Position numbers and translations under genes: made by a program. From an uncultured Calditrichaceae bacterium (GTDB lineage Bacteria; Calditrichota; Calditrichia; RBG-13-44-9), in assembly GCA_964387645.1 (NCBI GenBank), contig CAYLYM010000002.1, positions 642 through 64,641 on the forward strand: a stretch of 64,000 nucleotides of DNA. Direction: 5' to 3'. Positions 1,738 to 53,308 of the stretch are shown here, one piece after another (within the stretch, counting starts at the first letter, position 1; every line of letters begins with the position of its first letter). Below the pieces are notes generated by a model that worked only from the letters and a program-made list of their open reading frames with translations, did no database searches and was not told where the DNA came from.

Positions 1738-1790
1738 GAATGGGTTTTAAAGGCTTAAGAAGATGATTGAAAAAAATCAGAGGAATTTTT

Positions 1791-3044
1791 ATGAAAAAGC
1801 TTGGTAAATATTCTATCGGAATAGGAGACCGTTTTGCACATCAAGGAAAAGCTCAACTAAAGGCTATTATTCAGGCCAAAGAGGTCGGAGTAGAAATCAC
1901 ACCAGTGTGGAATAAATCCTACCGGGAACATAACATCGTAAAAAGTAATCCGAAGGATACCAGAGTTGAAGCAGATGAAGCTGTAAAAGCGCTTGGCTGG
2001 AAAGATGCCTATTTTGTTGATGCCGACCATGTGGGAATGAAAACAGTTGATTTGTTTATTGATTATAGTGATTTTTTCACGTTAGACGTGGCAGATTTTA
2101 TTGGAAAATCGGCAATTGATGATGACATCAATGCTTTTGTGGAAAGAAATAGAAAGTTTTTAGGAAATTTACAAATTCCTGGTATTTCAGAAGTATTTCA
2201 GATTACAGAAGAACAATTAAAGGCAGTTGCTGAGAAATTTCTTTTTGCCATTCAGGAGGCTGGACGCATCTATCGTCACATAGCTGGTAAAAAAGCAGAA
2301 AACTCTTTTATAGTGGAAGTTTCTATGGATGAAACAGATGAACCTCAAACACCGGTTGAGTTACTGTTTATTTTAGAAGCAATTGCAGCGGAAGGTATTC
2401 CTGCCCAAACTATTGCACCGAAGTTTACCGGTCGGTTTAATAAAGGAGTTGACTATGTGGGGGATGTGGAACAATTTTCTCGCGAATTTGAGCAGGACGT
2501 GGCGGTTATCAATTTTGCTGTTAAATCCTTTAGACTTCCTCCAGATTTAAAACTGAGTGTTCATTCTGGTAGCGATAAATTTGCTATCTATGGACCTATA
2601 AATCGCACGCTTAAGAAATTTAAAGCAGGACTTCATCTGAAAACAGCTGGTACAACCTGGTTAGAGGAATTAATTGGTCTAGCCGAAGCGGGAGGTGAGG
2701 GTTTAAAAATTGCCAAAGATGTCTATAGTGAGGCGTATCGCCGTTTTGATGAATTATGTGGCCCGTATGCTGCTGTAATTGATATTGATAAAGAACAACT
2801 CCCAACTCCAGAAACTGTAGAAACGTGGGATGGACAAACTTATGCCGATACCCTGCGTCATGATCAATCTTGTGATAAGTATAATCCGAATTTTCGTCAA
2901 CTTCTACATGTTGGATATAAGATAGCTGCCGAGATGGGAGATCGTTATCTCAGTGCTCTGAGAAAATATGAAGGGATCATAGCCAAAAACGTTACAGAAA
3001 ATATCTTTGAGCGTCACATCAAACCCGTTTTTATCAATCAATAA
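1791..3044 (+). CDS. uxaE: Tagaturonate/fructuronate epimerase UxaE
   Basis: Motifs SIGIGDRF, YFVDADH, EVSMDET, FTGRFNKGVDY, KLSVHSGSDKF, HLKTAGTTWLEE. Start moved from the TTG at 1767 to the ATG at 1791, which follows an AGAGGA SD. Confidence 0.9.
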   Translation: MKKLGKYSIGIGDRFAHQGKAQLKAIIQAKEVGVEITPVWNKSYREHNIVKSNPKDTRVEADEAVKALGWKDAYFVDADHVGMKTVDLFIDYSDFFTLDVADFIGKSAIDDDINAFVERNRKFLGNLQIPGISEVFQITEEQLKAVAEKFLFAIQEAGRIYRHIAGKKAENSFIVEVSMDETDEPQTPVELLFILEAIAAEGIPAQTIAPKFTGRFNKGVDYVGDVEQFSREFEQDVAVINFAVKSFRLPPDLKLSVHSGSDKFAIYGPINRTLKKFKAGLHLKTAGTTWLEELIGLAEAGGEGLKIAKDVYSEAYRRFDELCGPYAAVIDIDKEQLPTPETVETWDGQTYADTLRHDQSCDKYNPNFRQLLHVGYKIAAEMGDRYLSALRKYEGIIAKNVTENIFERHIKPVFINQ

Positions 3045-3645: not shown

Positions 3646-5583
3646 ATGATCACTTTTGAATTATTAGACTGGATATGGTTATTTCTTTTTATTGTTTTGA
3701 TGGTTGTTTTTGGATCCTATTTTTATCGTTTGGGTAAACGTTCAGAATCAGATTTTTTCTTAGCAGGTAGAGGATTGCCCTGGTGGTTGCCAGCTTCATC
3801 AGTTTATGCCACCCATACAGCTACAGATACACCTATTTGGGTTGCCGGTGTTGTTTATAAATATGGATTTGCTGGATTGTGGTATGCCTTTTTTGCGGCA
3901 TGGTGTGCTATTAGTGCTTTTGTGTCCACCAAAATTTTCCGACGTTCGTTAGCTTACAGCCAAGCGGAGTGGCAAAGCCTACGTTTTGGTGGTCTGGGAG
4001 CAGAGATGTTGCGAGGCTGGTTAGCTGGATGGCAGGTATTTATGAATATGTTTATCCTTGGTTGGGTAGGTATTGCTATGGGCAAGTTGTGTAACCTGCT
4101 GTTTGGATGGGATTTGTGGATTGGTCTGGTACTTTTTACCAGCATTGGAGCTATTTACGTGCTTCTTTCGGGTTATTGGGGAGTGGTGATGGCCGACTTT
4201 CAACAAGGGGTCATCGCCTTCTTGGTAATTGTTATTGTATCTATTTGGGGTGTTGTTGCGGCTGGCGGTCCCGATGCTATTGTGAATAAGCTCAAAAAAT
4301 ACAATAGCACCTGTGAATGGAAAATTCCAGATGATGTTCCCAATAATACTACTGGAATAGTCAGAATTACTGATTCTGAGACGGGTAAAGAATTTGCGCG
4401 ATCTTCCGGAACTTTTACCATTTTGAATAAAGAAGATGAACAGCAATTTAGAGCAACTGAGGAACGGGTAAAACAATTAGTAACTCAGGTTGAAAGTTCT
4501 TCAGCGGATTATCCCGAGGTCTTGTTTCCACGTGCAGGAGATGTGCTTTTAGCAAACCATGGTTATAATGTGGTTTGGACAGCAGGTAAAACCGGAAAAC
4601 GGGTGAATGTTGAGTATTCATTTGACAATGGTAAAACATGGTCTGCCATTGAATTGAATCATTTTGATGGTCAAATATGGCGAATTAATCCATTCAGCTT
4701 TACTGGTTTAACCAAGGGGCAGTTTCCTGTGGCATGGTTTATTACCATGATGATCATAGCTCTTATTGGCGGTTTTGGCATGGGAACCACTATTGATTGG
4801 TACACCGAAGCCCAGAGAATTCAGTCGGCCAAATCCGTTCGGGATGCTTCTTACAGTATCTGGGCTGGAACGGCTTTGGTGCTCATTCGTAATTCAATCT
4901 GGGCGGCAGCTATCATGGGCTTTTTTGTTTTATTTCCACATTTAGGCCAGAGCAGTGAATACGAAATGGGATGGTACATCGTAGGATTTCGATATCTACC
5001 TGTTGGAATGGTTGGATTCCTATTTGCAGGAATTCTGGCAATTCATTTATCCACTGTTTCGACTCAATTAAATTTAGGTGCAATGTATGCCACTCGCGAT
5101 TTTTATCATCATTATGTTAATCCCAAAGCTGACGAGAAAAAATTGGTATTAGTTGGACGTATATCCACTTTTATTATTTTAATCGGGTCTTTCATATTTG
5201 GAACAATTATTGGTGAAGAAATCACGGCATGGTTGATTTTTGCTCTCTGGATTATGGCTGCTGGTGTTTGGTTACCAAATATTCTACAGGTTATTTGGTG
5301 GCGTTTTAATGCCTGGGGTTCCTTAAGTGCATGGATTGCTAATCTGGGATTAAGTTGGTTGATTGTCTGGGTCTTACCCAGGTTTGGTGTCATCCCAGAA
5401 TTGCCAGATTATTTGCAATTCTGGATTCTTATTGTCTTGAATGCACTTATTTACATTCCTGTAACTTACTTAACAAAACCAGAAGATATGGACCATTTAG
5501 TCAAATTCTACGTTATGTCTCGTCCAATTGGTTTTTGGGGCCCAGTGAAGAAAGAAGCTATTCGCAGGGGATTGATTTCTTAA
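3646..5583 (+). CDS. Sodium:solute symporter (SSS) family transporter with an about 125 aa soluble insertion
   Basis: SDFFLAGRGLPWW, GYWGVVMADFQQG, AQRIQSAKS, GILAIHLSTVSTQLN and LVLVGRI motifs; many TM helices; hydrophilic insert at about 4300-4680. Confidence 0.9.
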   Translation: MITFELLDWIWLFLFIVLMVVFGSYFYRLGKRSESDFFLAGRGLPWWLPASSVYATHTATDTPIWVAGVVYKYGFAGLWYAFFAAWCAISAFVSTKIFRRSLAYSQAEWQSLRFGGLGAEMLRGWLAGWQVFMNMFILGWVGIAMGKLCNLLFGWDLWIGLVLFTSIGAIYVLLSGYWGVVMADFQQGVIAFLVIVIVSIWGVVAAGGPDAIVNKLKKYNSTCEWKIPDDVPNNTTGIVRITDSETGKEFARSSGTFTILNKEDEQQFRATEERVKQLVTQVESSSADYPEVLFPRAGDVLLANHGYNVVWTAGKTGKRVNVEYSFDNGKTWSAIELNHFDGQIWRINPFSFTGLTKGQFPVAWFITMMIIALIGGFGMGTTIDWYTEAQRIQSAKSVRDASYSIWAGTALVLIRNSIWAAAIMGFFVLFPHLGQSSEYEMGWYIVGFRYLPVGMVGFLFAGILAIHLSTVSTQLNLGAMYATRDFYHHYVNPKADEKKLVLVGRISTFIILIGSFIFGTIIGEEITAWLIFALWIMAAGVWLPNILQVIWWRFNAWGSLSAWIANLGLSWLIVWVLPRFGVIPELPDYLQFWILIVLNALIYIPVTYLTKPEDMDHLVKFYVMSRPIGFWGPVKKEAIRRGLIS

Positions 5584-10430: not shown

Positions 10431-11696
10431 ATGTTAATTGGAAAAGGCGCAAAAGATGTCGTTCTTAAAGAAGAGGAAGTTTTCAACCTGTGCGATCAGG
10501 CTTTTTCTCAAAAAGACCTTGATGGGAAAAAATTACTCGTGATTATCCCGGATCATTCTCGAACTGCTCCAATTGATATGATGTTCCGCCTGGTTTATCA
10601 ATTGCTGGCAGATCGGGTTCAACTTTTAGATTTCTTAATTGCTCTGGGAACACATCCCCCCATGAGCGATGAAATGATAAATAAGCGAGTTGGTATTACC
10701 CAGGAAGACCGTGTAACTAAATATCAAAAAGCCCGTTTCTTCAACCATTCTTGGAACGATCCTAATCAACTTCGATTAGCTGGTACGATCACCGAAAAAG
10801 AAGTTGAAGAGATTTCGGAAGGATTGATGCGAGAAGAAGTGGAAGTGACAGTTAACAAAATGATTTACAACTACGATCTGCTGTTGATAATAGGTCCTAC
10901 ATTTCCTCATGAAGTGGTTGGATTCTCTGGTGGAAACAAATATCTTTTTCCAGGAATTGCTGGACAGAAAATAATCGACATGTTTCACTGGTTGGGAGCG
11001 CTTATTACTAGTCCTAGGATCATTGGTACTAAGTATACTCCGGTTAGAAGAGTGGTCGATCGTGCAGCTCAATTTTTACCTGTAGAACGTATGTGTATCA
11101 GTCTGGTGGTCAAAGGTTATGATCTTGCCGGTTTATATATTGGCACACCAGAAGAAGCTTGGGATGCTGCTGCCGATCTGTCCAATCAGCTACACATCAT
11201 CTACAAAGAAAAACCTTTTCATACTGTTTTATCTCGCGCTCCGGAAATGTATGATGATTTATGGACGGGTGGAAAATGTATGTACAAATTAGAACCGGTT
11301 GTAGCGGATGGCGGAGAACTTATCATTTATGCACCGCATATTAAGGAAATATCTGTGACTCATGGAAAAATTATTGAAAAAATTGGTTACCATGTACGCG
11401 ATTATTTCTTAAAGCAAATGGATAAATTCAAAGACATTCCAGGTGGAGTAATGGCGCATTCAACACATGTGCGCGGTATTGGTACTTATGAGAATGGCGT
11501 GGAAAAACCGAGAATTAAAGTAACATTAGCAACTCAAATTCCGGAAGAAGTTTGTCAAAAAATCAACCTTGGTTATCGTGATCCAAGAACAATCAATATT
11601 GCTGATTTTGAGAATAGAGAGGAAGAAGGTATTCTTTATGTTCCCAAAGCTGGAGAAATGCTTTATCGTTTAAAAGACGATCCTTTTTGCAAATAA
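10431..11696 (+). CDS. LarA/DUF2088-family (nickel-pincer-dependent) 2-hydroxy-acid epimerase; candidate D-mannonate/D-gluconate 2-epimerase
   Basis: IIPDHSRT, IALGTHPPM, NHSW, GPTFPHEVVGFSGGNKYLFPG (equivalent to LarA PH..AGFSGGRK with the cofactor Lys kept). Substrate inferred from context only. Confidence 0.75.
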   Translation: MLIGKGAKDVVLKEEEVFNLCDQAFSQKDLDGKKLLVIIPDHSRTAPIDMMFRLVYQLLADRVQLLDFLIALGTHPPMSDEMINKRVGITQEDRVTKYQKARFFNHSWNDPNQLRLAGTITEKEVEEISEGLMREEVEVTVNKMIYNYDLLLIIGPTFPHEVVGFSGGNKYLFPGIAGQKIIDMFHWLGALITSPRIIGTKYTPVRRVVDRAAQFLPVERMCISLVVKGYDLAGLYIGTPEEAWDAAADLSNQLHIIYKEKPFHTVLSRAPEMYDDLWTGGKCMYKLEPVVADGGELIIYAPHIKEISVTHGKIIEKIGYHVRDYFLKQMDKFKDIPGGVMAHSTHVRGIGTYENGVEKPRIKVTLATQIPEEVCQKINLGYRDPRTINIADFENREEEGILYVPKAGEMLYRLKDDPFCK

Positions 11697-11892: not shown

Positions 11893-13185
11893 ATGGCACA
11901 GAATAAAAATGTTGTTGTTGCCCAATCTGGTGGGCCTTCGCCGGTTATAAATAATTCCTTACGTGGAATTATTGAAACCTGCAAGATGTTTCCAGACAAA
12001 TTTGCTACCATTTATGGCGGTTATCATGGGGTTGAAGGAATTTTAAAGGAAGAACTACTTGATTTATCTGCTCAACCGGAAGAAGAGATTTCTCTTTTAC
12101 GTACAACCCCGGCAGCGGGGTCAATCGGTACTTGCCGTTACAAATTGAGAGAACATCAACAGGAAGATTTCGAACGCGTCATCGAAGTATTTAAAGCACA
12201 TAATGTGGGGTACTTTTTCTACATAGGGGGCAACGACTCGATGGACACCGCCAATAAAGTAGCAAAGTTAGCTCATAAAAGAGGATTAGATCTTGTTGCT
12301 GTGGGTGTGGCAAAGACCATCGATAATGATGTTGGCGATTCTGAATTCAAATTAATCGATCATACACCGGGTTACGGAAGTGTGGCACGCTATTGGGCAC
12401 ATATTATTCAAAATGCCAATGAAGAAAATATGGGATCATCGCCGTCGGATCCTGTATTAGTGATTCAAATGATGGGTCGGAAGATCGGATTTATTCCAGC
12501 GGCCGCACGATTAGCTGATCCCAAACGTGAAATGCCGCTACAAATTTATATGCCAGAATCAAATGTATCTATGGAGGAGTTGGTAGACAATGTAAATGAT
12601 GAACTAAAAAGAAGCGGTCGGGTAATTGTTTGTATCAGTGAAGGGTTTGATGTAGGAGATGTTGGCGCAGTAAAAGATGCTTTCGGCCATACGCAATTCA
12701 GTGCCAGCAAATTGACCGTGGCTCAGATTGTAGTGAATCACTTGAATAGTGTTGGATTAAAAGCCCGTGGTGCAGCTCGAGGCCAGGTACCTGGCACTGA
12801 CCAGAGGGATACCATGATATATGCTTCTACAGTAGATTTAGACGAAGCATACAAAATCGGACAAAATGCAGTTGTTATTGCCATAGAAAGTGGCTCTGGA
12901 TATATGTCTACTTTGAAAAGACGTCCTGGAATTATATACAATGTGGACTATGATAAAGTACCTCTGGAATTGGTGGCCAACTCAGAACGTGAATTTCCAA
13001 AAGAATGGATTGCACCAAACCGGATTGATGTAACAGATGATTTTGTGCGGTATGCTCGGCCCTTGATTGGAGAGGATTGGGTGAGTGTTCCTATTATTAA
13101 TGGTCGGCAGAGATTTACCCGTTTCAAGAAAATTTTTGCTGAGAAAAAACTACCACAATATGTGCCCCAGGCTTATCGATCTTGA
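11893..13185 (+). CDS. pfp: Phosphofructokinase family, probably PPi-dependent
   Basis: AQSGGPSPVIN, GGNDSMDT (Asp in GGxD indicates the PPi type), KTIDND, MGR motifs. Confidence 0.8.
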   Translation: MAQNKNVVVAQSGGPSPVINNSLRGIIETCKMFPDKFATIYGGYHGVEGILKEELLDLSAQPEEEISLLRTTPAAGSIGTCRYKLREHQQEDFERVIEVFKAHNVGYFFYIGGNDSMDTANKVAKLAHKRGLDLVAVGVAKTIDNDVGDSEFKLIDHTPGYGSVARYWAHIIQNANEENMGSSPSDPVLVIQMMGRKIGFIPAAARLADPKREMPLQIYMPESNVSMEELVDNVNDELKRSGRVIVCISEGFDVGDVGAVKDAFGHTQFSASKLTVAQIVVNHLNSVGLKARGAARGQVPGTDQRDTMIYASTVDLDEAYKIGQNAVVIAIESGSGYMSTLKRRPGIIYNVDYDKVPLELVANSEREFPKEWIAPNRIDVTDDFVRYARPLIGEDWVSVPIINGRQRFTRFKKIFAEKKLPQYVPQAYRS

Positions 13186-13223
13186 AAAGATTAAATTATT
13201 GAATAATATAAACGATAAGGAGG

Positions 13224-14117
13224 ATGCAACCAATGACTGACCCGCAGGCTGAATTACGTAATATGGAACCACAGCACGAATACCTTGTGGCTATTGATTC
13301 TGATGGTTGTGCTTTCGACACTATGGAAATCAAGCACAAAGAATGCTTCATTCCCAACATTATTAAATACTGGCACTTGCAACCAGTATCTAAATATGCC
13401 CGTGCTGCTGCTGAATTTGTTAATCTATACTCTAAATGGCGGGGGATTAATCGCTTTCCAGCTCTAATTATGGTTTTTGATTTACTACGCGAATGGCCTG
13501 ATGTCAAGAAACGTCAAGTGGAAATTCCAATAGCACAACCTTTGCGGGATTGGATTCAGCGAGAAACGAAACTTGGTAACCCGGCCTTAAAAGCGGAAGT
13601 AGAACGTACCAATGATCCAGTCCTTAAGCAAGCTCTGGAATGGAGCGAAGCTGTGAATCGTACAGTGGCCGACATTGTACATGGAGTTCCGCCCTTTCCA
13701 TACGTGCGCGAAAGCCTTGAGAAAATTTCCCAATGGGCAGATATCATTGTCTGCTCCGCCACCCCTTACGAAGCCTTAAGAAGAGAGTGGGAAGAGCATG
13801 ATATTGCGAAATATGTACGCGTAATAGCTGGACAGGAAATGGGTAGCAAAAAGGAACATATTCAATTAGCTTCGGAAGGCAAGTATGACAAGGATAAAGT
13901 TTTGATGATAGGTGATGCACCGGGTGATATGAAAGCTGCAAAAGCCAACAATGCCAAATATTTCCCCATTAATCCAGGACATGAGGATGATTCCTGGGAA
14001 TTCTTCTACAAAGAGGCTGCGGATAAATTTTTAAGTGGAGAGTATACGGAGGAATATGAAACGAAACTGGTGGCGGAATTTGAAAAGCTTTTACCTGAAA
14101 AACCTCCCTGGAAGTAG
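13224..14117 (+). CDS. HAD-superfamily hydrolase/phosphatase
   Basis: Motif I DSDGCAFDT, motif II CSAT, motif III K (GSKKEH), motif IV IGDAPGD. Confidence 0.85.
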   Translation: MQPMTDPQAELRNMEPQHEYLVAIDSDGCAFDTMEIKHKECFIPNIIKYWHLQPVSKYARAAAEFVNLYSKWRGINRFPALIMVFDLLREWPDVKKRQVEIPIAQPLRDWIQRETKLGNPALKAEVERTNDPVLKQALEWSEAVNRTVADIVHGVPPFPYVRESLEKISQWADIIVCSATPYEALRREWEEHDIAKYVRVIAGQEMGSKKEHIQLASEGKYDKDKVLMIGDAPGDMKAAKANNAKYFPINPGHEDDSWEFFYKEAADKFLSGEYTEEYETKLVAEFEKLLPEKPPWK

Positions 14118-14150
14118 ATTATATTCCTATCGGCTTTCTTGCAAAAAATT

Positions 14151-14187
14151 CCTGAAGCAGAATGTTCGTAAAACATTCTGCTTCAGG
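14151..14187 (+). terminator. Rho-independent terminator
   Basis: Perfect 16 bp stem CCTGAAGCAGAATGTT / AACATTCTGCTTCAGG, 5 nt loop, followed by TTT; lies just after the HAD gene. Confidence 0.8.
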
Positions 14188-14588
14188 TTTCTGAGGAACA
14201 GTTTATTGACAGAAATTAAAATTTAAGTTCGGTGATATTATCTATAAATTTAAGTTGAATTGCAAGCCAACTATTTTAACTCCAGTGGTTAAAATAATTT
14301 CGTTATTTAGTGTTTATTTAAAATATGAATTTACCACCCCCTGGGTTTTTTAGGGAATTAGGTGATTAAAACTTTCGTAAAAAAGTTACTTAAATTTTCA
14401 TATTAAAGAATGTTACCCGCCTGGTTTTATTACCTCATGAAGTTGATTTGTCCTGCTTTCTTATTGCTATTCATGAATGGATATAAATTCAATCTTTCTT
14501 TAAGTAAAACTCTCGATATTTTTTAAAGAAATGTCGTTAATATTTTATAGAAGTTCCATTTAATAAAGATTTGTGAAAAATAATGGCC

Positions 14589-14617
14589 TTGCAACATGAA
14601 ATGAAAATTGTTAATAT
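14589..14617 (+). promoter_or_regulatory. Putative sigma70 promoter for the GHMP kinase-galU-uxaC unit
   Basis: TTGCAA-17 nt-TAATAT, about 50 nt upstream of the ATG at 14667. Confidence 0.55.
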
Positions 14618-14666
14618 CACATTAAATTAAAAAATTTATGAATAAAAAAACAGATGTTGCAGGCCA

Positions 14667-15662
14667 ATGATTATTGAAACTCATGCTTTTGCCAGGGCAG
14701 GCTTACTTGGTAATCCTTCTGATGGTTATTTCGGAAAAACCATTTCTATTAGTGTTCGAAACTTTGGTGCTCATATTTCTTTATACGAAACGCCTGAATT
14801 GCAGATAATTCCTCAAGAAGTGGATAAAAATGTTTACAGAAATATCCACGAGTTAGTTGAAAATATTAGCCTGACTGGATATTATGGTGGAGAAAGACTC
14901 ATCAAAGCAGCTATTAAAAAGTTTTATGAATACTGCCGGGAAAATAAAATTAAGATTAGTAACCGAAATTTTACCATTCGCTATCATTCTTCAATACCCA
15001 GACAGGTAGGACTTGCTGGTTCTAGTGCTATTATTACTGCCACAATGAAAGCTTTGATGAAATTTTATCAGGTAAAAATCCCATTAGAAATTCTTCCTAA
15101 TGTAGTGCTTTCTGCAGAAGTAGACGAATTGGGAATTAATGCTGGTTTACAAGATCGCGTTATTCAGGCTTATGAAGGATGTGTATATATGGATTTTGAT
15201 AAAAAATATATGGAAAAACATGGTCACGGTAGATATGAGCGGATTAATCCAGAGCTTTTACCCAATCTTTATATTGCCTACAAAACTGACTTAGGTAAAG
15301 TCTCGGGCAAGGTTTTAAATACGATTAAACAGAGATATGACGAAGGGGATGAATTTGTCATCAATACCCTGAACCAGATTGCTGAACTGGCTGAATTGGG
15401 CAGGAAGGCGATTCTGGATCGTGATTATGATAAGTTGAATGAATATATGAACTTGAATTTCGATTTACGCCGCAAAATTATGAATATCAGCGAAAGTAAT
15501 CTGGAACTGGTAGAAACAGCTCGCAAATGTGGTGTATCAGCAAAGTTTTCTGGTTCAGGTGGATCTATTATTGGTATTTACAAAGATGACAAAATGCTAA
15601 CCAGATTGATTGTTAATTTAAAAAAAATTAAAGCTAGAGTCATAAAACCCTATATTGTGTGA
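14667..15662 (+). CDS. GHMP kinase, glucuronokinase-like
   Basis: GHMP motifs IPRQVGLAGSSA and AKFSGSGGS; the N-terminus FARAGLLGNPSDGYFGKTIS matches the plant glucuronokinase N-terminus as I recall it. Confidence 0.8.
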   Translation: MIIETHAFARAGLLGNPSDGYFGKTISISVRNFGAHISLYETPELQIIPQEVDKNVYRNIHELVENISLTGYYGGERLIKAAIKKFYEYCRENKIKISNRNFTIRYHSSIPRQVGLAGSSAIITATMKALMKFYQVKIPLEILPNVVLSAEVDELGINAGLQDRVIQAYEGCVYMDFDKKYMEKHGHGRYERINPELLPNLYIAYKTDLGKVSGKVLNTIKQRYDEGDEFVINTLNQIAELAELGRKAILDRDYDKLNEYMNLNFDLRRKIMNISESNLELVETARKCGVSAKFSGSGGSIIGIYKDDKMLTRLIVNLKKIKARVIKPYIV

Positions 15663-15677
15663 TTAAGGGAGGTAAAT

Positions 15678-16577
15678 ATGGTTAGAAAGGCTGTGATACC
15701 TGCTGCGGGAATGGGTACTCGTTTTTTACCTGCTACCAAAGCACAACCTAAAGAAATGTTGCCCATTATCGATACCCCAACTATTCAATATGTGGTTCAA
15801 GAAGCAGTAGATTCCGGGATTGAAGATATTTTAATTATTACAGGTAAAGGTAAAAGAGCTTTGGAAGATCATTTTGACCGAAACTTTGAATTGGAGGTTT
15901 TATTAGAAAAAAAGAATGAAATGTTTTATTATAATGAAATTCGCCGTATTGCCGATATGGCGAATATTCATTTTATCAGGCAAAAGGAGCTAAATGGGTT
16001 GGGTGATGCCATTTCTTATGCCGCAGATCATATCGGTAATGAGCCGTTTGCGGTTCTTTTAGGCGATACTATTGTCGATTCAGTTATTCCTGTTACTCAA
16101 CAGTTGATCGATATTTATGAACAATTTCGTCAATCAGTGATTGCAGTTGAAGAAGTGCCCGAAGATAAAGTAAATCGTTACGGTATTGTTGGTGGGAAAA
16201 AGATTAGCGATAGAATTCTTGAAGTCGATCAACTAATCGAAAAACCTTCTGTTGAAGAAACTCCATCTAATCTAGCGATTGCTGGAAGGTATATTCTTAC
16301 ACCTGAAATTTTTAAAGCTATTAAACAAACATTTCCTGGTAAAAACAATGAAATTCAATTAACTGATGCATTAAGGATACTTCTCGATAGAGAAAATATT
16401 TATTCATATACTATTGAAGGTAAGCGTTACGACATAGGGAACAAATTGGATTACTTAAAAACAGTGGTTGAGTTTGGATTAAAACGACCGGAATTCAGTG
16501 AGCCTTTTTCTGAATTTCTCCAAGAAATCATCCAATCTCATATTAAAAAGAATCATCAAAATGATACAAATAAGTAA
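15678..16577 (+). CDS. galU: UTP--glucose-1-phosphate uridylyltransferase (GalU family)
   Basis: KAVIPAAGMGTRFLPATKAQPKEMLP, GLGDAI, LLGD, EKP, GRYILTP, NEIQLTDAL. Confidence 0.92.
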   Translation: MVRKAVIPAAGMGTRFLPATKAQPKEMLPIIDTPTIQYVVQEAVDSGIEDILIITGKGKRALEDHFDRNFELEVLLEKKNEMFYYNEIRRIADMANIHFIRQKELNGLGDAISYAADHIGNEPFAVLLGDTIVDSVIPVTQQLIDIYEQFRQSVIAVEEVPEDKVNRYGIVGGKKISDRILEVDQLIEKPSVEETPSNLAIAGRYILTPEIFKAIKQTFPGKNNEIQLTDALRILLDRENIYSYTIEGKRYDIGNKLDYLKTVVEFGLKRPEFSEPFSEFLQEIIQSHIKKNHQNDTNK

Positions 16578-16606
16578 AACTTCACTGTAATAAAAGGGGA
16601 TTTATT

Positions 16607-18025
16607 ATGTCAGAATTTGTTTTGGAAGAAGATCGTTTTTTTGAACCAGATCCGATTATTAGGAAAATAGCTCGCGAACTTTACCAAGAGGTAAAGGATC
16701 TGCCTATTGTTAGTCCACATGGACATGTTGACCCGCGGATTTTGGCTGAAAATACGCCTTTTCCTGATCCGACAGAACTTATTCTTATCCCTGATCATTA
16801 TATTTTCCGAATGCTTTATTCTCAGGGAATTCCTCTGGAATCACTTGGGATTCCTACGATAGACGGGACACCGGTGGAAACGGATCACCGCAAAATCTGG
16901 CAAATTTTTGGAGAGAATTTTTACCTATTTAGGGGAACACCAACTGGTGTCTGGTTAACTCATGAATTTTATGAAGTTTTTGGTATTCGTGAAAAATTAA
17001 CTGGCGAGTCGGCTTTGCGAATCTATGATCAGATTCAGGAAAAACTACAATCACCGGAATATCTACCACGCAGCTTGTATGACCGGTTTAATATTGAGGT
17101 ATTAACTACTACCGATGGAGCAGAAGATACATTGGAATATCATAAGAAAATTCAGAAATCCGATTGGAACGCTCGTATAATTCCATGCTTTCGTCCCGAT
17201 GCAGTCGTCAATATCACAGCTAAAGATTGGAAACAACATATTCACCGGTTGAGCGAAGTGAGTGGCATTGAAATAAATTCTTTTAAAAATTTTATCAAAG
17301 CTCTGGAACAGCGGCGAGAATTTTTCAAGTCCATGGGAGCAGTTTCAACTGACCAGGGTATTGTAAGCCCTTACACGCATGAATTATCGCCGAATGAAGT
17401 GGAAGCTATTTTTCAACGCGCTTTAAAGGGGACCGCTACCGAAGAGGATTGGAATCAATTTACTGCCCACATGTTGATGGAAATGGCAAGAATGAGTGTA
17501 GAAGATGGTCTGGTAATGCAAATCCATCCGGGGTCTTTCCGAAATCACAATAAATTCATCTTTGAACGATTTGGTCTGGATAAAGGCTGTGATATTCCTG
17601 TACAAACAGAATATACTCGAAATTTACATGAATTACTCAACAAATATGGTAACCATCCAAATTTTACGTTGGTTGTTTTCACGTTGGATGAGAGCACTTA
17701 TTCTAGGGAATTAGCACCGTTAGCAGGTCATTATCCGGCTATGAAATTAGGTGCAGCCTGGTGGTTCCATGACAGCATTGAAGGAATGATGCGGTTCAGA
17801 CAACATGTTACCGAGACTGCTGGATTCTATAACACGGTTGGTTTTACTGATGATACGCGAGCTTTCCCGTCCATTCCAGCGCGTCATGATGTAGCCCGAC
17901 GGATCGATGCTAATTTCCTGGCAATTCAAGTATCTAAACACATAATTGACTTAGAAGATGCTCGAACTATCATAAAGGATCTTGCTTATAATATTCCAAA
18001 AAAAGTTTATAAATTAGACAATTAA
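16607..18025 (+). CDS. uxaC: Uronate isomerase (glucuronate/galacturonate isomerase)
   Basis: SPHGHVDP, PDHYIFRMLYSQG, MQIHPG, LGAAWWFHD, GFTDDTRAFPSIPARHDVARR. Confidence 0.95.
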   Translation: MSEFVLEEDRFFEPDPIIRKIARELYQEVKDLPIVSPHGHVDPRILAENTPFPDPTELILIPDHYIFRMLYSQGIPLESLGIPTIDGTPVETDHRKIWQIFGENFYLFRGTPTGVWLTHEFYEVFGIREKLTGESALRIYDQIQEKLQSPEYLPRSLYDRFNIEVLTTTDGAEDTLEYHKKIQKSDWNARIIPCFRPDAVVNITAKDWKQHIHRLSEVSGIEINSFKNFIKALEQRREFFKSMGAVSTDQGIVSPYTHELSPNEVEAIFQRALKGTATEEDWNQFTAHMLMEMARMSVEDGLVMQIHPGSFRNHNKFIFERFGLDKGCDIPVQTEYTRNLHELLNKYGNHPNFTLVVFTLDESTYSRELAPLAGHYPAMKLGAAWWFHDSIEGMMRFRQHVTETAGFYNTVGFTDDTRAFPSIPARHDVARRIDANFLAIQVSKHIIDLEDARTIIKDLAYNIPKKVYKLDN

Positions 18026-18220
18026 GCAGTCGAAAAAGCTTATTTTAAATCAGGTAATTATCCTTATGTTTTGTAAACACTTGAAAAATTAATTTGAAAA
18101 TTTTATGTTAATCATTACTTTATTTGAACATAATTTAAATCTGGAAGATATGTTTGAACTCCCGGATTTGTAGCTTATGAAATAATTTAATTAAAAATTG
18201 ACTAAATTGGAGGAATTGGA

Positions 18221-19213
18221 ATGCGATCGTTGAAAATTTTAATTTATTTTACTCTTCTTACTTTTATTATAATTGGTTTTTTGTTTTCCGGTTGTGGAAA
18301 GAAGAGTAATGTCGTCACCTTGAAGATGGCTCATGGATTGGCGACCACCCACCCGGTACACAAAGCCATGGAATTCATGGCGAAAAAAGCACTGGAAAAG
18401 TCTGATTCCACGCTGGTGATTGAGATTTATCCAAACGAACAATTAGGCAACGAAAAAGAAATGCTGGAAAAATTACAGTTGGGTGCTATTGCTCTTACCA
18501 AAGTATCCAGCAGCATGTTAGAGAGCTTTCTAGATGAGTACAAAGTATTTGCTCTTCCTTACATTTTCCGCAACGATGAGCACAAATGGAAAGTATTTAA
18601 TGGTCCTATTGGTAAAAAGATATTGGCTTCTGGTGAAAAAATTAAGCTGAAGGGATTGGTTTATTATGATGCAGGTTTCCGTAGTTTTTATACCCGAGAA
18701 AAACCGATTTTGCATCCTGATGATTTAAAAGGATTAAAGATCCGAACTCAGCAAAGCCCCATGGCAATGAAAATGATTTCGGCTTTAGGCGGATCGGCCA
18801 CACCCATTTCGTGGGGCGAATTATACACAGCCCTTCAACAGGGTGTAGTAGATGGTGCAGAAAATAATCCACCTAGCCTTTACACTTCCAATCATTACGA
18901 AGTCTGTAAGCATTATAGTCTGGATGAGCATACGGGAGTGCCAGATGTTGTTTTAATCAATACTGATGTCTGGAACAGATTGTCCCCTCTTCATAAAAAA
19001 GCTCTTATGGAGGCTGCTGAAGAATCTGTACCTTATCAAAGGCAATTGTGGAAAGAATTTGTAAAGGAGAGTATGGATAAAATGGTTGCAGCGGGTCTAA
19101 AAGTATATCATCCCGATAAACAGCCTTTTAAAGAGAAGGCTATGGCATTGTGGAAAGAATTTGAAGGAACAATTGTTGGCGAATTGGCAAAAGAGATTCA
19201 AGAGGTGAAGTAA
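18221..19213 (+). CDS. dctP: TRAP transporter substrate-binding protein, lipoprotein (probably uronate-binding)
   Basis: YPNEQLGNE, DLKGLKIR, ELYTALQQGVVDGAENN; lipobox FSGC. Confidence 0.93.
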   Translation: MRSLKILIYFTLLTFIIIGFLFSGCGKKSNVVTLKMAHGLATTHPVHKAMEFMAKKALEKSDSTLVIEIYPNEQLGNEKEMLEKLQLGAIALTKVSSSMLESFLDEYKVFALPYIFRNDEHKWKVFNGPIGKKILASGEKIKLKGLVYYDAGFRSFYTREKPILHPDDLKGLKIRTQQSPMAMKMISALGGSATPISWGELYTALQQGVVDGAENNPPSLYTSNHYEVCKHYSLDEHTGVPDVVLINTDVWNRLSPLHKKALMEAAEESVPYQRQLWKEFVKESMDKMVAAGLKVYHPDKQPFKEKAMALWKEFEGTIVGELAKEIQEVK

Positions 19214-19215
19214 TC

Positions 19216-19707
19216 ATGTATAAACGAATAAGAAAAGGGCTTGATACATTTTTAGAAGTTCTTACAGCAGTGGTTATGGGTATCTTGGTTCTGGATGTAA
19301 CTTGGCAAGTAATAACTCGTTTTATTCTGAAAAATCCGAGTAATTGGTCGGAGGAATTGGCCACTTATCTGATGATTTGGGTTGGTCTACTGGGGGCGGC
19401 TGTTGCGCTAAATCGTGGCGCACATCTGGGTATTGATTATTTCGTTGGAAAATTGGATCAAAAGAAAAGACTGATCACAGAGCTTATCGTCTTCCTCTCT
19501 ATTGGGTTTTTCTCGGTCTTTGTGTTAATTTTGGGTGGTGTTAAACTTGTTCAAGAAACCTTCCAGATGGGACAAACGGCTCCGGCTACCGGCATTAAAA
19601 TTGGTTATGTTTATATTTCTGTGCCAGTTTCTGGCTTTTTTATTGCCCTTTACAGTTTTGAATTTTTTGTAGAAAGCTTTTTAAAGCTGAAAAAACTATC
19701 ATCTTAA
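19216..19707 (+). CDS. dctQ: TRAP transporter small permease
   Basis: QVITRFI, WSEELATYLMIW, GAHLGID; four TM helices. Confidence 0.92.
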   Translation: MYKRIRKGLDTFLEVLTAVVMGILVLDVTWQVITRFILKNPSNWSEELATYLMIWVGLLGAAVALNRGAHLGIDYFVGKLDQKKRLITELIVFLSIGFFSVFVLILGGVKLVQETFQMGQTAPATGIKIGYVYISVPVSGFFIALYSFEFFVESFLKLKKLSS

Positions 19708-19789
19708 ATTTCTAGTGATTTATCTCCGCAGAGGGAGATGAGAATAAGTGTTGATTAATTGGTTATATTAATTCAAAGTGGAGTTGTCA

Positions 19790-21088
19790 ATGGATTGGCC
19801 TACAATTGTTCTGGTTGTTAGTTTTGTTGTTTTGCTTTTTTTGAATGTACCTATTGCCTTTGCCATTGGTATTTCAACCCTTTTAACCATTTATACCATC
19901 GGTGGATTACCTGCTCTCAAGATTGTGGCACATACCATGGCAACAGGTATCGATAGCTTTGCTTTACTCGCTATTCCATTTTTTATCTTAGCCGGACTTT
20001 TTATGGGTCGCGGTGGAATTGCCCGAAGGCTGATCGACTTTGCCAACGTGATTGTCGGTCGATTTCCAGGTGGCCTGGCGTATGTAAATATTTTAACCTG
20101 TATGCTTTTTGGCGCGATATCAGGGTCAGCCGTTGCGGCTGTTTCCAGCGTCGGTGGATTCATGATTCCTCTAATGAATAAAGAAGGTTATCACCGCGAT
20201 TTTAATGCTTCGGTAAGTATTACAGCAGCAACAACTGGATTACTTATTCCGCCAAGCAATGTAATGATTGTTTATTCTCTGGCTACCGGAGGAATTGTCT
20301 CTATTGCTGCGATATTTCTGGCTGGATTTCTACCAGGGTTTCTGATGGGCCTTGGTTTAATGATAGTTAGCGGTATAATTTCTATTCGGCGTGGATATGG
20401 AAAAGGTATAAAATTTGGTTTGAAAGAAGGGTTTATTAAATTTCTGAGTGCTATTCCGCCATTATTCTTAGTGGTATTAGTTCTCGGTGGTATTTTAGCA
20501 GGATTTTTTACTGCTACTGAAGCCGCAGCAATTGCAGTCGTATATGCCTTCATTCTATCAGTCTTTTTTTACAAAGAGGTTAAACTTAAAGATATCCCGC
20601 ATATTCTTTTACAAGGAGGCATTACTACTGCTGTTGTGTTTTTGCTTATTGGAACTTCCATGGCAATGTCCTGGGTGTTAGCCTATCAGGATATACCACA
20701 AAATATCAGCACTGCCTTATTAAGCCTTTCGAATAGTAAGATTATCATCCTGTTGATTATCAACCTCATTTTATTAGCGGTAGGTACTTTTATGGATATG
20801 ACACCCGCTGTGCTGATTTTTACACCCATTTTCTTACCAATTGTTCAGAATTTAGGTGTGCATCCTATTCATTTTGGTATTATCATGATTATGAATTTAT
20901 GTATTGGTATTTGTACTCCACCAGTGGGTTCTGCGTTGTTTGTCGGCTGTGGAATTGCTGAAACGACTATAACTAAAGTACTGAAACATATTATTCCATT
21001 TTTCATTGCCATGATTATTGTCCTGTTTATCACTACCTATATTCCTGAAATTTCCCTCATTATTCCACGTCTCTTCGGCTTTCACTAA
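19790..21088 (+). CDS. dctM: TRAP transporter large permease
   Basis: LLAIPFFILAG, GAISGSAVA, LLIPPS, GICTPPVG. ATG at 19790 preferred over the GTG at 19778 (GGAG SD). Confidence 0.95.
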   Translation: MDWPTIVLVVSFVVLLFLNVPIAFAIGISTLLTIYTIGGLPALKIVAHTMATGIDSFALLAIPFFILAGLFMGRGGIARRLIDFANVIVGRFPGGLAYVNILTCMLFGAISGSAVAAVSSVGGFMIPLMNKEGYHRDFNASVSITAATTGLLIPPSNVMIVYSLATGGIVSIAAIFLAGFLPGFLMGLGLMIVSGIISIRRGYGKGIKFGLKEGFIKFLSAIPPLFLVVLVLGGILAGFFTATEAAAIAVVYAFILSVFFYKEVKLKDIPHILLQGGITTAVVFLLIGTSMAMSWVLAYQDIPQNISTALLSLSNSKIIILLIINLILLAVGTFMDMTPAVLIFTPIFLPIVQNLGVHPIHFGIIMIMNLCIGICTPPVGSALFVGCGIAETTITKVLKHIIPFFIAMIIVLFITTYIPEISLIIPRLFGFH

Positions 21089-21095
21089 GATAAAT

Positions 21096-21128
21096 GAAAC
21101 CACCTTGAAAAGGATTCAGGGTGGTTTC
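21096..21128 (+). terminator. Stem-loop terminator after the TRAP operon
   Basis: GAAACCACCTTGAA / TTCAGGGTGGTTTC, 14 bp with one G-U pair. Confidence 0.7.
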
Positions 21129-21400
21129 TGCAATTCTTGTATTTAGTTTTTATTTTCTAAAAAGACTATAAGTTCATAAGCTTCTCAATAAAATGCGTCC
21201 TAGTTTATTTTTAAAATTTGTTTGAATTAATCTATTTAACAAAAGCTTTTCATTTTTTGAATATTAGATTTGTTAATATTTTATATTGTGAATTGTTTTA
21301 TTCACTCTATCTATTATTTATAAACGGGGAGTGGATTTACAAAATTTTTGAATTTATTGAATAAATTGATATTAAATAATTCAATTTTTTTGAGGAGGAT

Positions 21401-23560
21401 ATGCAAATAAGGTTTGGTCTCTTTTCTATTTTAATTTTCATTATTAATATATTTATAATTTATTCAGTGTTAGGAAATAGTCGGATAGAAGCTGTGTTAA
21501 TAGAAACGCCGCCTAGGATTGATGGGCGAGTTGTTGAAGATGTATGGTTTAAAGCAGCAGTAGTTGATCAGTTTTTCCAGAGGGAGCCAGATACTGGTCA
21601 ACCCTCATCACAACCAACTGAATTTTACGTCTGTTACGATCGAGATTATCTTTACATTGGAGTCAAATGCTATGATGATCCTGCTAAGGTTACTGCGAAA
21701 GAAATGGCGCGCGATGCCAGTTTAAAATATGATGATAAAGTAGCCATCATTATTGATACTTTTCTTGATCGTCGGAATGCTTACTGGTTTCAAATTAATC
21801 CACGCGGTTGTATTGGCGATGGAATTTTGAGTCAAAATGGTGCTGCATTAAATAAACAGTGGGATGGGCTTTGGGAAGGACGTGCTAAAATTCATGAAAA
21901 GGGTTGGGATGCCGAAATAGCCATACCGTTCAAGACCTTGAGTTTCCATCCTGGTCAGACTACCTGGGGCATCAAATTTATGCGCGAAATTCAACGGAGA
22001 AGTGAAAAGGTTTATTGGCCGGTTGCGAATTTAGATACTTATAAGTTCCAGGTGTCAGATGCAGGACTATTGGAAGGTCTTGATGGTATTTCGCAGGGTG
22101 TGGGATTGGATGTTGCTCCGTACGTTCTGGTTGGATTAGATCAGAAAGTTGGAACGAATTATAAGTACCCCTCAGATGCAGGTGTTGATATTTTTTATCA
22201 GATTACCTCGGGAATAAAAAGCGCTATTACAATAAATACAGATTTTGCACAAACAGAGGTTGACGATCGTCAGATTAATTTAACACGTTTCAGATTACAT
22301 TTTCCGGAGAAACGTGATTTTTTTCTTGATGGCGCCAGTTATTTTCAATTTGGGAGAGAAGGTGATCGGCAAAATCGCTATGCTAAAAAATTAATTCCAT
22401 TTTTTTCACGACGATTGGGATTAGATAAAGATGGTAATCCAATTCCAATCGTATGGGGAGCCAAAGTGACTGGTCAGGTTGGTAAATGGAATCTGGGATT
22501 TTTGAATATTATGGATGAGCGGTCGACAGGAAAAAAGAACTTTACAGTAAATCGAGTATCTCGCAATTTTGGAAGCCAATCGTCAATTGGAATGATTGCA
22601 ACGCACGGAAACGCCCTTTCAGAGGATGATAATCTACTTCTGGGTGTTGATGTGAGATTAGCTACTTCAACTTTCCGTGGCAACAAGAACCTGGCTTTTT
22701 TAGGATATCTTCTCAAATCCAAAACAACCGGTCTATCAGGAAATGATTTCGCTTTTGGAAGCGAGATCGTTTATCCTAACGATTTTTTATTTTTCAGAAC
22801 TGGTTATCACCAGATTGAAGAAAATTTCCGAGCAGGAGTTGGTTTTGTTCCAAGGTTGAATTACCGGGAATCCTATGCTGAAATTTTATTTGGTCCTCGA
22901 CCAAAAAGGTGGGGAATCTTACAAATTAAATTTGGCTCAGAACTGGATTATTTAACAGATTTGAATAATTATTTACTTACCCGAGAAGTTCGGTTTATAC
23001 CATTTTCCATATATTTTAATTCTGGAGATGAAATCGCCTTTGATATATCTCAACGGTATGAGTTTTTAGATAAACCTTTTAATATTTACACGGATCATAT
23101 TATTGATCCTGGCATTTATTCCTTTTGGCGTTACCAAATTAGAGTTGGCAGCGCCCAAAGACGAAATTTCTGGACTACTGTAAATTACAATTGGGGTGAT
23201 TTCTGGAATGGAGAAAACAAGCAATTGCAGTTGGCTATGGGATATAAAATCACTGTTCCTCTTTTCATGGGGCTGCAATTAGAACACAATGATGTTTCTT
23301 TAATCGACGGTGCTTTCAACGCCAAGGTTGTGCGTCTAAACGCCGATATTCTATTCAGTCCCAGGATAACTTTAAGCAATTTTATTCAATATGATAATTT
23401 TTCAAAAGAAATGGGTTGGCAATCTCGTTTTCGCTGGATTCTAAAACCGGGTAACGAAATTTTACTGGTTTGGAATTCTATATGGGAAGAACCCTTAGAA
23501 CGTTATGAAATTTCTCAAAGTGCTTCTCGATTGAAATTCTGTTACAATTATAGATTTTAA
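21401..23560 (+). CDS. CBM9-like domain plus DUF5916 protein; probable outer-membrane beta-barrel
   Basis: Signal peptide; PRIDG, QREPDTG, D.F.DRRNAYWFQINPRG, NTDFAQTEVDDRQINLTRFRLHFPEKRDFFL, FFSRRLG; alternating beta pattern and a terminal YRF. Confidence 0.8.
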   Translation: MQIRFGLFSILIFIINIFIIYSVLGNSRIEAVLIETPPRIDGRVVEDVWFKAAVVDQFFQREPDTGQPSSQPTEFYVCYDRDYLYIGVKCYDDPAKVTAKEMARDASLKYDDKVAIIIDTFLDRRNAYWFQINPRGCIGDGILSQNGAALNKQWDGLWEGRAKIHEKGWDAEIAIPFKTLSFHPGQTTWGIKFMREIQRRSEKVYWPVANLDTYKFQVSDAGLLEGLDGISQGVGLDVAPYVLVGLDQKVGTNYKYPSDAGVDIFYQITSGIKSAITINTDFAQTEVDDRQINLTRFRLHFPEKRDFFLDGASYFQFGREGDRQNRYAKKLIPFFSRRLGLDKDGNPIPIVWGAKVTGQVGKWNLGFLNIMDERSTGKKNFTVNRVSRNFGSQSSIGMIATHGNALSEDDNLLLGVDVRLATSTFRGNKNLAFLGYLLKSKTTGLSGNDFAFGSEIVYPNDFLFFRTGYHQIEENFRAGVGFVPRLNYRESYAEILFGPRPKRWGILQIKFGSELDYLTDLNNYLLTREVRFIPFSIYFNSGDEIAFDISQRYEFLDKPFNIYTDHIIDPGIYSFWRYQIRVGSAQRRNFWTTVNYNWGDFWNGENKQLQLAMGYKITVPLFMGLQLEHNDVSLIDGAFNAKVVRLNADILFSPRITLSNFIQYDNFSKEMGWQSRFRWILKPGNEILLVWNSIWEEPLERYEISQSASRLKFCYNYRF

Positions 23561-44418: not shown

Positions 44419-44459
44419 TTCTGGAATTGTTTAATGGTAAAAAAGGATACTTTATCCAG

Positions 44460-51288: not shown

Positions 51289-51318
51289 ATGATGTATATT
51301 GGTTGTAAGGGGAGAATT

Positions 51319-53289: not shown

Positions 53290-53308
53290 ATAGAGGTAGT
53301 CAAGGCTT

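Follow-up and report, generated by a model that had tools for sequence, protein, structure and literature searches.

Textbook accounts let bacteria make UDP-glucuronate (UDP-GlcA) only through Ugd, by oxidation of UDP-glucose. Can some bacteria also make it from scavenged D-glucuronate (GlcA)? This question is raised by a locus of an uncultured Calditrichaceae bacterium, in which the gene of a GHMP-family sugar kinase is directly followed by galU and uxaC. The locus lies within a stretch of 64,000 nucleotides (nt) of contig CAYLYM010000002.1 (GenBank assembly GCA_964387645.1), which was analyzed as a whole and is called the window below. An earlier reading of this DNA, made without database searches and referred to here as the sequence-only reading, had taken the kinase for a plant-type glucuronokinase. 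It had proposed that kinase and GalU together convert GlcA to GlcA-1-phosphate (GlcA-1-P) and further to UDP-GlcA, with a branch point towards the catabolic enzyme UxaC. We therefore analyzed the locus computationally, and the comparisons described below point to a kinase–GalU pair that is kept across phyla and would salvage GlcA as UDP-GlcA. The three genes that define the locus are the following:

14667–15662, + strand: GHMP-family sugar-1-kinase, probable D-glucuronokinase (EC 2.7.1.43), 331 amino acids (aa); assigned by Pfam and similarity
15678–16577, + strand: GalU-family sugar-1-phosphate uridylyltransferase of a kinase-linked subfamily (Asp110, Thr131, Arg167, Ala202), 299 aa; assigned by TIGR01099
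16607–18025, + strand: UxaC, glucuronate/galacturonate isomerase, step 1 of hexuronate catabolism, 472 aa; assigned by NF002794 and Pfam UxaC

The coordinates, the strand and the gaps of 15 nt (kinase to galU) and 29 nt (galU to uxaC) appear in the list of open reading frames (ORFs) exactly as the sequence-only reading had them, and its naming of the three genes agreed with Pfam, TIGR01099 and NF002794.

The kinase and its conserved galU neighbor

The kinase contains both GHMP domains of Pfam above their gathering scores (GHMP_kinases_N PF00288, 46.8 bits; GHMP_kinases_C PF08544, 31.4 bits) and matches no curated equivalog model of NCBIfam. Its homologs were collected by an exhaustive phmmer search against 1.84 billion cluster representatives, which yielded 516 clusters at E values up to 1e-30. 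A 366-aa protein among the homologs, named 'glucuronokinase 1 [Ziziphus jujuba]' in both NCBI and UniRef, was 46% identical to the window kinase by BLASTP (67% positives over 319 aa, E 5e-98), which bears out the plant-type assignment of the sequence-only reading. About 50 further proteins of 560–960 aa, one of them from the ichthyosporean Chromosphaera, carry the kinase domain at their C-terminus with 43–50% identity to the window kinase, an arrangement known from the zebrafish glucuronokinase/pyrophosphorylase (PMC3938481). At kinase residues 11–24, the segment AGLLGNPSDGYFGK is identical in 10 of 14 positions to VGFLGNPSDVYFGR, a peptide sequenced from the glucuronokinase purified out of lily pollen (PMC2823444), and the two have the motif GNPSD in common. 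Other GHMP families gave much weaker matches: heptose kinases were the top sequence matches in the PDB, at 42 bits (3K85), and the mevalonate kinase model reached 70 bits, below its cutoff of 163. These results indicate that the window kinase is, by its sequence, clearly a member of the glucuronokinase family. We infer its substrate from the characterized members: Arabidopsis AtGlcAK (At3g01640) accepts D-GlcA as its sole substrate and rejects Glc, Gal, Xyl, Ara and GalA (PMC2823444), and a unique specificity for glucuronic acid has been reported for the zebrafish enzyme (PMC3938481).

In a rough neighbor-joining tree, the plant and fusion-type eukaryotic sequences formed one large clade among many lineages of bacterial length, and the window kinase clustered with sequences from KSB1, Catalinimonas, Bacteroidales, Caldithrix and Aminicenantes. 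The distance between the bacterial kinase clade and the plant enzyme equaled the distances among bacterial clades. The tree is star-like and most of its tips are unlabeled, so we draw nothing from it on whether the gene passed from bacteria to eukaryotes or the other way.

We then compared the neighborhoods of the kinase in 33 loci, namely 31 from a scan of one genome per species, a locus of Catalinimonas and the window, whose 392 flanking ORFs were clustered. The 31 scanned loci came from KSB1, Bacteroidales and Marinilabiliaceae, Caldithrix, Aminicenantes, KSB3/UASB270, Lentisphaerota, Tepidisphaeraceae and others. The pairing seen in the window proved to be conserved: galU lay directly 3' of the kinase in 28/33 loci, mostly with gaps of <30 nt, and was the sole widely recurrent neighbor. 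One of the five loci lacking a downstream galU is interrupted by a contig end. The pair occurred in KSB1, Bacteroidota, Caldithrix, KSB3, Lentisphaerota and Planctomycetota, that is, in at least six phylum-level groups. Its carriers include Lentisphaerota zth2 (CP071032), an Aminicenantes genome (CP070750) and Catalinimonas alkaloidigena. Genes of transporters of the tripartite ATP-independent periplasmic (TRAP) type were the second commonest neighbors (6/33 loci), and uxaC followed the pair in 2/33 loci, those of the window and of a KSB1 genome. In Catalinimonas, the pair stood isolated amid unrelated genes. Ugd, UDP-GlcA decarboxylase/epimerase, glycosyltransferases and myo-inositol oxygenase (MIOX) were not recurrent among the flanking ORFs of the 33 loci. 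The neighbor counts thus indicate that the conserved unit consists of kinase and GalU, and that the link to uxaC is lineage-specific. Of the branch point with UxaC that the sequence-only reading had drawn, the adjacency in this locus holds, and uxaC itself falls outside the conserved module.

The two domains were also found joined in one polypeptide. A 626-aa metagenomic protein (P0132) contains a GalU-type domain fused to a glucuronokinase domain, in the reverse of the usual bacterial gene order. Compared with the window GalU, its GalU domain shows 32% identity (E 4e-42); it contains the motif GLGDA and has Cys at the position of Thr131, a residue discussed below. The protein is encoded on a contig of 2204 bp from JGI sample 3300056388, and the sequence looks rich in G+C. 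Across 34 pairs, the identities of kinases and of GalUs correlated with r = 0.94 (r = 0.27 within the distant group); the high value is driven by two groups, and we take it only as consistent with co-inheritance.

The pairing might reflect co-regulation only, with GlcA-1-P passing to a phosphorylase or mutase route or into signaling and GalU making UDP-glucose independently. Such an arrangement would fit three loci (L012, L014 and L015) in which a TRAP transporter stands immediately 3' of the kinase with no adjoining GalU, and a further locus (L037) that has a close Thr-type GalU with no kinase within 4 kb. Against it stand the retention of the pair in most loci across phyla with very short gaps and the point that no other enzyme is known to consume GlcA-1-P. 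The covalent fusion of both domains in bacteria, with a parallel fusion in eukaryotes (PMC3938481), argues in the same direction, and we regard mere co-regulation as highly improbable.

Two sets of loci deserve mention in their own right. The three loci with an adjoining TRAP transporter are of the Aminicenantes type and show the kinase in another local arrangement: a xylose-isomerase-like TIM barrel protein with a signal peptide is encoded 5' of the kinase, and GFO/IDH/MocA oxidoreductases are encoded nearby. An identical kinase was also found on three metagenome contigs. On one of them (L032, 10312–11125; JGI sample 3300033156), galU is present as overlapping ORFs of 128 and 150 aa, which are either frameshift variants or assembly errors; the genes for 6-phosphogluconate dehydrogenase and a Lar_N protein are shorter on this contig too.

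Residue signature of the partner GalU

The window GalU scored 381.5 bits against TIGR01099, above the equivalog cutoff of 326.8, and is ~56% identical to Bacillus subtilis YngB, a proven UDP-glucose pyrophosphorylase. Its Pfam matches were PF00483 (NTP_transferase) and PF12804 only, with none to the UDPGP family; it is not a member of the UDP-sugar pyrophosphorylase (USP) family, yet it may act in a USP-like manner. Residue roles were mapped from the YngB, Pseudomonas and Klebsiella enzymes (PMC7961091, PMC11796359). The window GalU keeps A10, G11, R15, K25, E26, Q102, G107, D130, G169, E188 and K189, which cover the uridine, catalytic Arg, Mg and phosphate roles and the Glu/Gly roles in sugar binding. 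The sugar-contacting Asp that follows the Mg ligand (D134 in YngB, D131 in the Pseudomonas enzyme PaUGP) is replaced by Thr131; the equivalent residue of RmlA may lie near O6. Of the 28 kinase-adjacent GalUs in the genome loci and the window, 27 have Thr at this position and one has Ser.

As a background, metagenome contigs were scanned with a GalU alignment, and the best 80 loci, 51–75% identical to the window GalU, were retained. Adjacency to the kinase was assessed in the 60 of these best 80 loci that had at least 1100 nt of upstream sequence. None of 42 GalUs with Asp at position 131 adjoined a kinase gene, compared with 9 of 18 GalUs with another residue there (Thr, Ala, Ser or Glu; Fisher p = 3e-6). 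We further compared 37 kinase-adjacent GalUs with 57 of the Asp type, and the two sets were separated at the following positions, as well as at several others:

Position 110, in the GLG(H/D)A loop: Asp in 37/37 kinase-adjacent GalUs; His in 53/57 Asp-type GalUs
Position 131, sugar contact: Thr in 35/37 kinase-adjacent GalUs; Asp in 57/57 Asp-type GalUs
Position 158: Glu in 37/37 kinase-adjacent GalUs; Gln in 50/57 Asp-type GalUs
Position 167, two residues before the sugar-contacting Gly169: Arg in 35/37 kinase-adjacent GalUs; Lys in 36/57 Asp-type GalUs
Position 202, after the sugar-contacting Ile201: Ala in 35/37 kinase-adjacent GalUs; Leu, Ile, Met or Val in Asp-type GalUs

These substitutions would fit a remodeled sugar pocket. 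We also considered an electrostatic explanation, in which a carboxylate could be accommodated once Asp131 is gone; this idea is weakened by the gain of Asp110 in the same subfamily. Two GalU relatives of ~281–284 aa with Thr at position 131 (L059, 3998–4843; L077, 4007–4861) were found in archaeal-looking contexts with no kinase, where they adjoin genes for an RmlA-like nucleotidyltransferase and an epimerase. Thr131 alone is therefore no marker of the kinase-linked subfamily.

Does the pair instead handle a neutral sugar? GalU might be a housekeeping UDP-glucose pyrophosphorylase and the kinase might act on C1 of a neutral hexose such as glucose or galactose, so that a neutral sugar is salvaged as UDP-glucose or UDP-galactose. 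The equivalog score, the resemblance to YngB and the fully intact set of catalytic residues all agree with this explanation, the sugar-contacting Asp is missing from enterobacterial UDP-glucose pyrophosphorylases as well, and the Catalinimonas pair lies outside any uronate context. The kinase, however, has ~46–50% identity to eukaryotic enzymes that are specific for GlcA and do not accept Glc, Gal, Xyl, Ara or GalA, and it has in common with them an N-terminal motif resembling a sugar site. Moreover, the partner GalUs depart from the mainstream at and beside sugar-contact residues, and the recurrent transporters are TRAP systems, a type for organic acids, with relatives that bind uronates. A neutral hexose thus appears to us an unlikely substrate.

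Uronate context and the proposed salvage route

Directly after uxaC, at a distance of 195 nt, the window encodes a complete TRAP transporter (18221–21088), which was absent from the sequence-only reading. This transporter and the region upstream of the kinase are made up as follows:

18221–19213, + strand: TRAP solute-binding protein of the DctP family, probable hexuronate receptor; assigned by Pfam DctP and PDB matches
19216–19707, + strand: TRAP small permease DctQ; Pfam DctQ, E 1.4e-30
19778–21088, + strand: TRAP large permease DctM; Pfam DctM, E 3e-125; TIGR00786, 430 bits
14118–14666, + strand: AT-rich intergenic region of 549 nt 5' of the kinase, presumed promoter region

The best PDB match of the DctP protein was 4X8R (251 bits, aligned over nearly the full length), and 4N8Y, 4N91 and 4MHF were the other top matches. 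The ligands of these proteins are glucuronate (4X8R), galacturonate (4N8Y), glucuronate (4N91) and both glucuronate and galacturonate (4MHF) (PMC11668362, PMC7660916). With its DctPQM genes and a binding protein nearest to uronate-bound structures, the transporter is a probable hexuronate importer. TRAP systems generally import organic acids (PMC7660916), and this habit, together with the uronate-binding relatives of the receptor, supports an acid sugar as the substrate of the adjoining kinase. Orthologs of the DctP gene lie 3' of the kinase in L012, L014, L015 and L019, and the TRAP proteins of the first three are 53–55% (DctP) and 65–66% (DctM) identical to those of the window. UxaC itself was assigned at 561 bits by NF002794 (cutoff 387, residues 5–470) and with an E value of 2e-91 by Pfam UxaC. 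A second piece of hexuronate metabolism is present 12 kb 5' of the kinase locus, where the gene of a UxaE-like tagaturonate epimerase (1767–3044; PF16257, 186 bits) precedes that of a sodium:solute symporter (3646–5583). Further sugar genes in the window encode a transketolase, a 6-phosphogluconate dehydrogenase, a LarA-like protein and a pyrophosphate (PPi)-dependent phosphofructokinase. Among the window ORFs scanned, neither a further galU nor a ugd or MIOX gene was found.

The same context raises galacturonate as a candidate. The module might activate D-galacturonate, or both hexuronates, and deliver UDP-galacturonate or a mixture for polysaccharide synthesis. UxaC and the nearest solved TRAP binding proteins handle glucuronate and galacturonate alike, the UxaE-like epimerase is of a type typical of galacturonate catabolism, and the tree places the bacterial kinase clade no nearer to the plant enzyme than bacterial clades are to one another. 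In the plant family, on the other hand, AtGlcAK showed no detectable activity on GalA, and the plant galacturonokinase belongs to a different, unrelated GHMP branch (PMC2823444). We consider the activation of galacturonate to be quite unlikely.

The reading that we favor, and hold to be rather probable from these sequence comparisons, is that the locus serves the uptake and two fates of D-glucuronate, one of them its salvage by way of GlcA-1-P to UDP-GlcA. D-glucuronate would be imported by the TRAP transporter. UxaC would isomerize part of it for catabolism, and the GHMP kinase would phosphorylate another part at C1, with ATP, to alpha-D-glucuronate-1-phosphate. The Thr131-type GalU would then convert GlcA-1-P and UTP to UDP-glucuronate and pyrophosphate, and UDP-GlcA would thereby be formed for its presumed downstream uses without UDP-glucose dehydrogenase. 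The kinase and the GalU subfamily would make up a two-gene salvage module in many phyla, with the linkage to uxaC and to the transporter being optional and lineage-specific. The salvage proposed in the sequence-only reading stands, as far as sequence goes, on the kinase family, the conservation of the pair, the GalU signature, the fusion protein and the TRAP context; its promoter, its branch point with uxaC and its implied novelty were unsupported or overstated.

Several points weigh against the salvage of GlcA by this pair. The window GalU passes the galU equivalog and closely resembles YngB, and it may be simply, or additionally, the UDP-glucose enzyme of the cell. The Klebsiella UDP-glucose pyrophosphorylase is active with Val at the Asp position (PMC11796359), and Thr-type GalUs without a nearby kinase exist, including some in archaeal-looking contexts. 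A simple charge argument for the binding of a carboxylate breaks down, since the subfamily has acquired Asp110 besides losing Asp131. The bacterial fusion was seen only once, on a contig of 2.2 kb. In the fish fusion, the pyrophosphorylase half was almost inactive in vitro (PMC3938481), and the analogy with that fusion is therefore incomplete. Finally, our literature search found no assay report for a bacterial glucuronokinase or a bacterial GlcA-1-P uridylyltransferase.

The region upstream of the kinase was also inspected. A perfect hairpin with a 17-bp stem and a 3-nt loop lies at 14151–14187, 34 nt past the stop codon of a HAD-family gene, with a T-run on the minus-strand side only; we take it for a probable terminator or boundary element ahead of the kinase leader. 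The hairpin and the long AT-rich gap after it are compatible with a new transcription unit that begins before the kinase, and the short spacing makes co-transcription of kinase, galU and uxaC plausible. The sequence-only reading had placed the three genes behind one promoter-like element, for which the scans gave no support. Matches to the sigma-70 consensus between 13100 and 21500 occurred at chance level (27 sites, compared with 29.1 expected from shuffled sequences), with none on the + strand of the 549-nt gap 5' of the kinase, and the best match found by eye (TTGCAA-17-TAATAT, 14589–14617) agrees at only 8/12 positions. The Bacteroidetes-type -7 motif TAnnTTTG was absent from the gap and was at chance level overall. 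An Rfam scan of 13000–21500 at E values up to 1 matched no riboswitch or other RNA element, the 549-nt leader included. Among the intergenic regions of the window, a search for common operator motifs returned only AT-rich 11-mers expected by chance, and a palindrome search returned nothing convincing except the hairpin after the HAD-family gene.

Bacterial homologs of glucuronokinase were mentioned in 2009, in one sentence, as occurring in 'a few bacteria' (PMC2823444). Close homologs of the window kinase are automatically named glucuronokinase by JGI; in NCBI, they are mostly called 'GHMP kinase' or 'mevalonate kinase'. The idea is therefore less new than the sequence-only reading had implied. 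In our literature search, we did not find the conserved kinase–galU pairing or the GalU subfamily described, and the pairing with a specialized GalU appears to be undescribed. With kinases under these NCBI names and partners all called GalU, the pathway is invisible in current annotation. If it operates, a second, scavenging-driven route to UDP-GlcA would exist in many environmental and gut-associated lineages, and genome-based reconstruction of the supply of capsule, exopolysaccharide, UDP-xylose and UDP-galacturonate would change.

A bolder version of the proposal, which we put forward tentatively and with more doubt than confidence, is that the GalUs with Thr131, Asp110, Arg167 and Ala202 are dedicated GlcA-1-P uridylyltransferases derived from UDP-glucose pyrophosphorylase. 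Paired with a kinase of strict GlcA specificity, they would provide a widespread route to UDP-GlcA that bypasses Ugd and is fed by environmental or host-derived glucuronate, in bacteria of the Fibrobacteres–Chlorobi–Bacteroidetes (FCB) and Planctomycetes–Verrucomicrobia–Chlamydiae (PVC) groups and in candidate phyla. Were this so, the pair would be the first of its kind for glucuronate salvage in bacteria, and its GalU would do what the pyrophosphorylase half of the fish enzyme could not be shown to do. The subfamily signature offers a testable handle on sugar specificity in a very well studied enzyme family. One-pot syntheses of UDP-GlcA and hyaluronan presently rely on the plant kinase (PMC6888640), and a soluble bacterial kinase–transferase pair could take on this role in biocatalysis.

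The rest of the window and comparison with known systems

The remainder of the window contains further features. All 43 gene-like ORFs of at least 130 aa lie on the + strand across the 64 kb, and the GC skew is positive in every 2-kb bin from 1 to 64000; the window is an unusually long co-directional stretch. The LarA-like protein (10431–11696, with a Lar_N domain) is encoded between the 6-phosphogluconate dehydrogenase and the PPi-dependent phosphofructokinase. Its best NCBIfam model was 'nickel-dependent putative hexonate epimerase' at 189 bits, far under the cutoff of 500, and it may be a nickel-pincer sugar-acid epimerase. From 23765 to 63208, a dense array encodes at least 12 GFO/IDH/MocA oxidoreductases, 5 xylose-isomerase-like TIM barrels and 5 proteins with 3-keto-disaccharide hydrolase domains, one of which has 1148 aa and HEAT repeats (44406–47852), together with a ThuA-HEAT protein (29072–31906). 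This array looks like a large region for oxidative (3-keto) glycoside utilization. Embedded amid its sugar oxidoreductases are two cytochrome loci: a NapC/NirT-type multiheme cytochrome c domain fused to an FGE-sulfatase (formylglycine-generating enzyme-like) domain (36181–37704), and a multiheme cytochrome followed by a cytochrome b561-like protein (51289–53968). Both may serve to carry off electrons from the oxidation of sugars in the periplasm. At 57030–58964, a single protein of 644 aa combines a PfkB-family carbohydrate kinase and a HAD phosphatase domain.

Among known systems, the plant route through glucuronokinase and USP has the chemistry that is proposed here, GlcA to GlcA-1-P to UDP-GlcA. 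The kinases are homologous, with the 46% identity given above and with the GHMP motifs and the N-terminal GNPSD motif in common. The second enzymes differ, as plant USP is a eukaryotic-type protein of ~600 aa, whereas the window partner is a prokaryotic GalU-type nucleotidyltransferase of ~300 aa. The settings differ as well. In contrast to the plant route of myo-inositol oxygenation and salvage, the bacterial genes are adjacent, GlcA is probably imported by the TRAP transporter, and MIOX is missing from the window ORFs scanned.

The GKUP proteins of zebrafish and Xenopus consist of a glucuronokinase fused to a putative uridylyl pyrophosphorylase (PMC3938481). Their kinase belongs to the family of the window kinase and is physically joined to a domain of the NTP-transferase fold, and the kinase domains of the eukaryotic fusions are 43–50% identical to the window kinase. 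The window has two separate ORFs with the kinase first, whereas the eukaryotic fusions have the transferase at the N-terminus. Their N-terminal domains are of a divergent NTP-transferase type and mostly have no significant BLAST similarity to the window GalU, and the nearly inactive fish domain contrasts with a window GalU that retains every canonical catalytic residue.

GalU, GtaB and YngB are homologous to the window GalU over the full length and have the uridine, Mg and phosphate residues in common with it. The window subfamily is set apart from this mainstream by D110, T131, E158, R167 and A202, and by a linkage to glucuronokinase that looks obligatory. A similar logic, from sugar to sugar-1-phosphate to NDP-sugar, with a GHMP kinase beside or fused to an NTP-transferase, is known from the fucokinase/GDP-fucose pyrophosphorylase FKP of Bacteroides fragilis (PMC11982464) and from heptose activation by HddA/HddC. 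In the window, by contrast, the sugar would be a uronate and the nucleotide UTP, and the sequence relation is distant, at the 42 bits scored against 3K85. Finally, the transporter resembles the hexuronate TRAP systems of Salmonella (STM3169–3171) and Rsph17029_2138 (PDB 4X8R) in its DctP/DctQ/DctM architecture and in its association with uxaC. In six loci, the window among them, the transporter genes are linked to a kinase that would be anabolic, rather than to UxaC/UxuAB catabolic genes alone.

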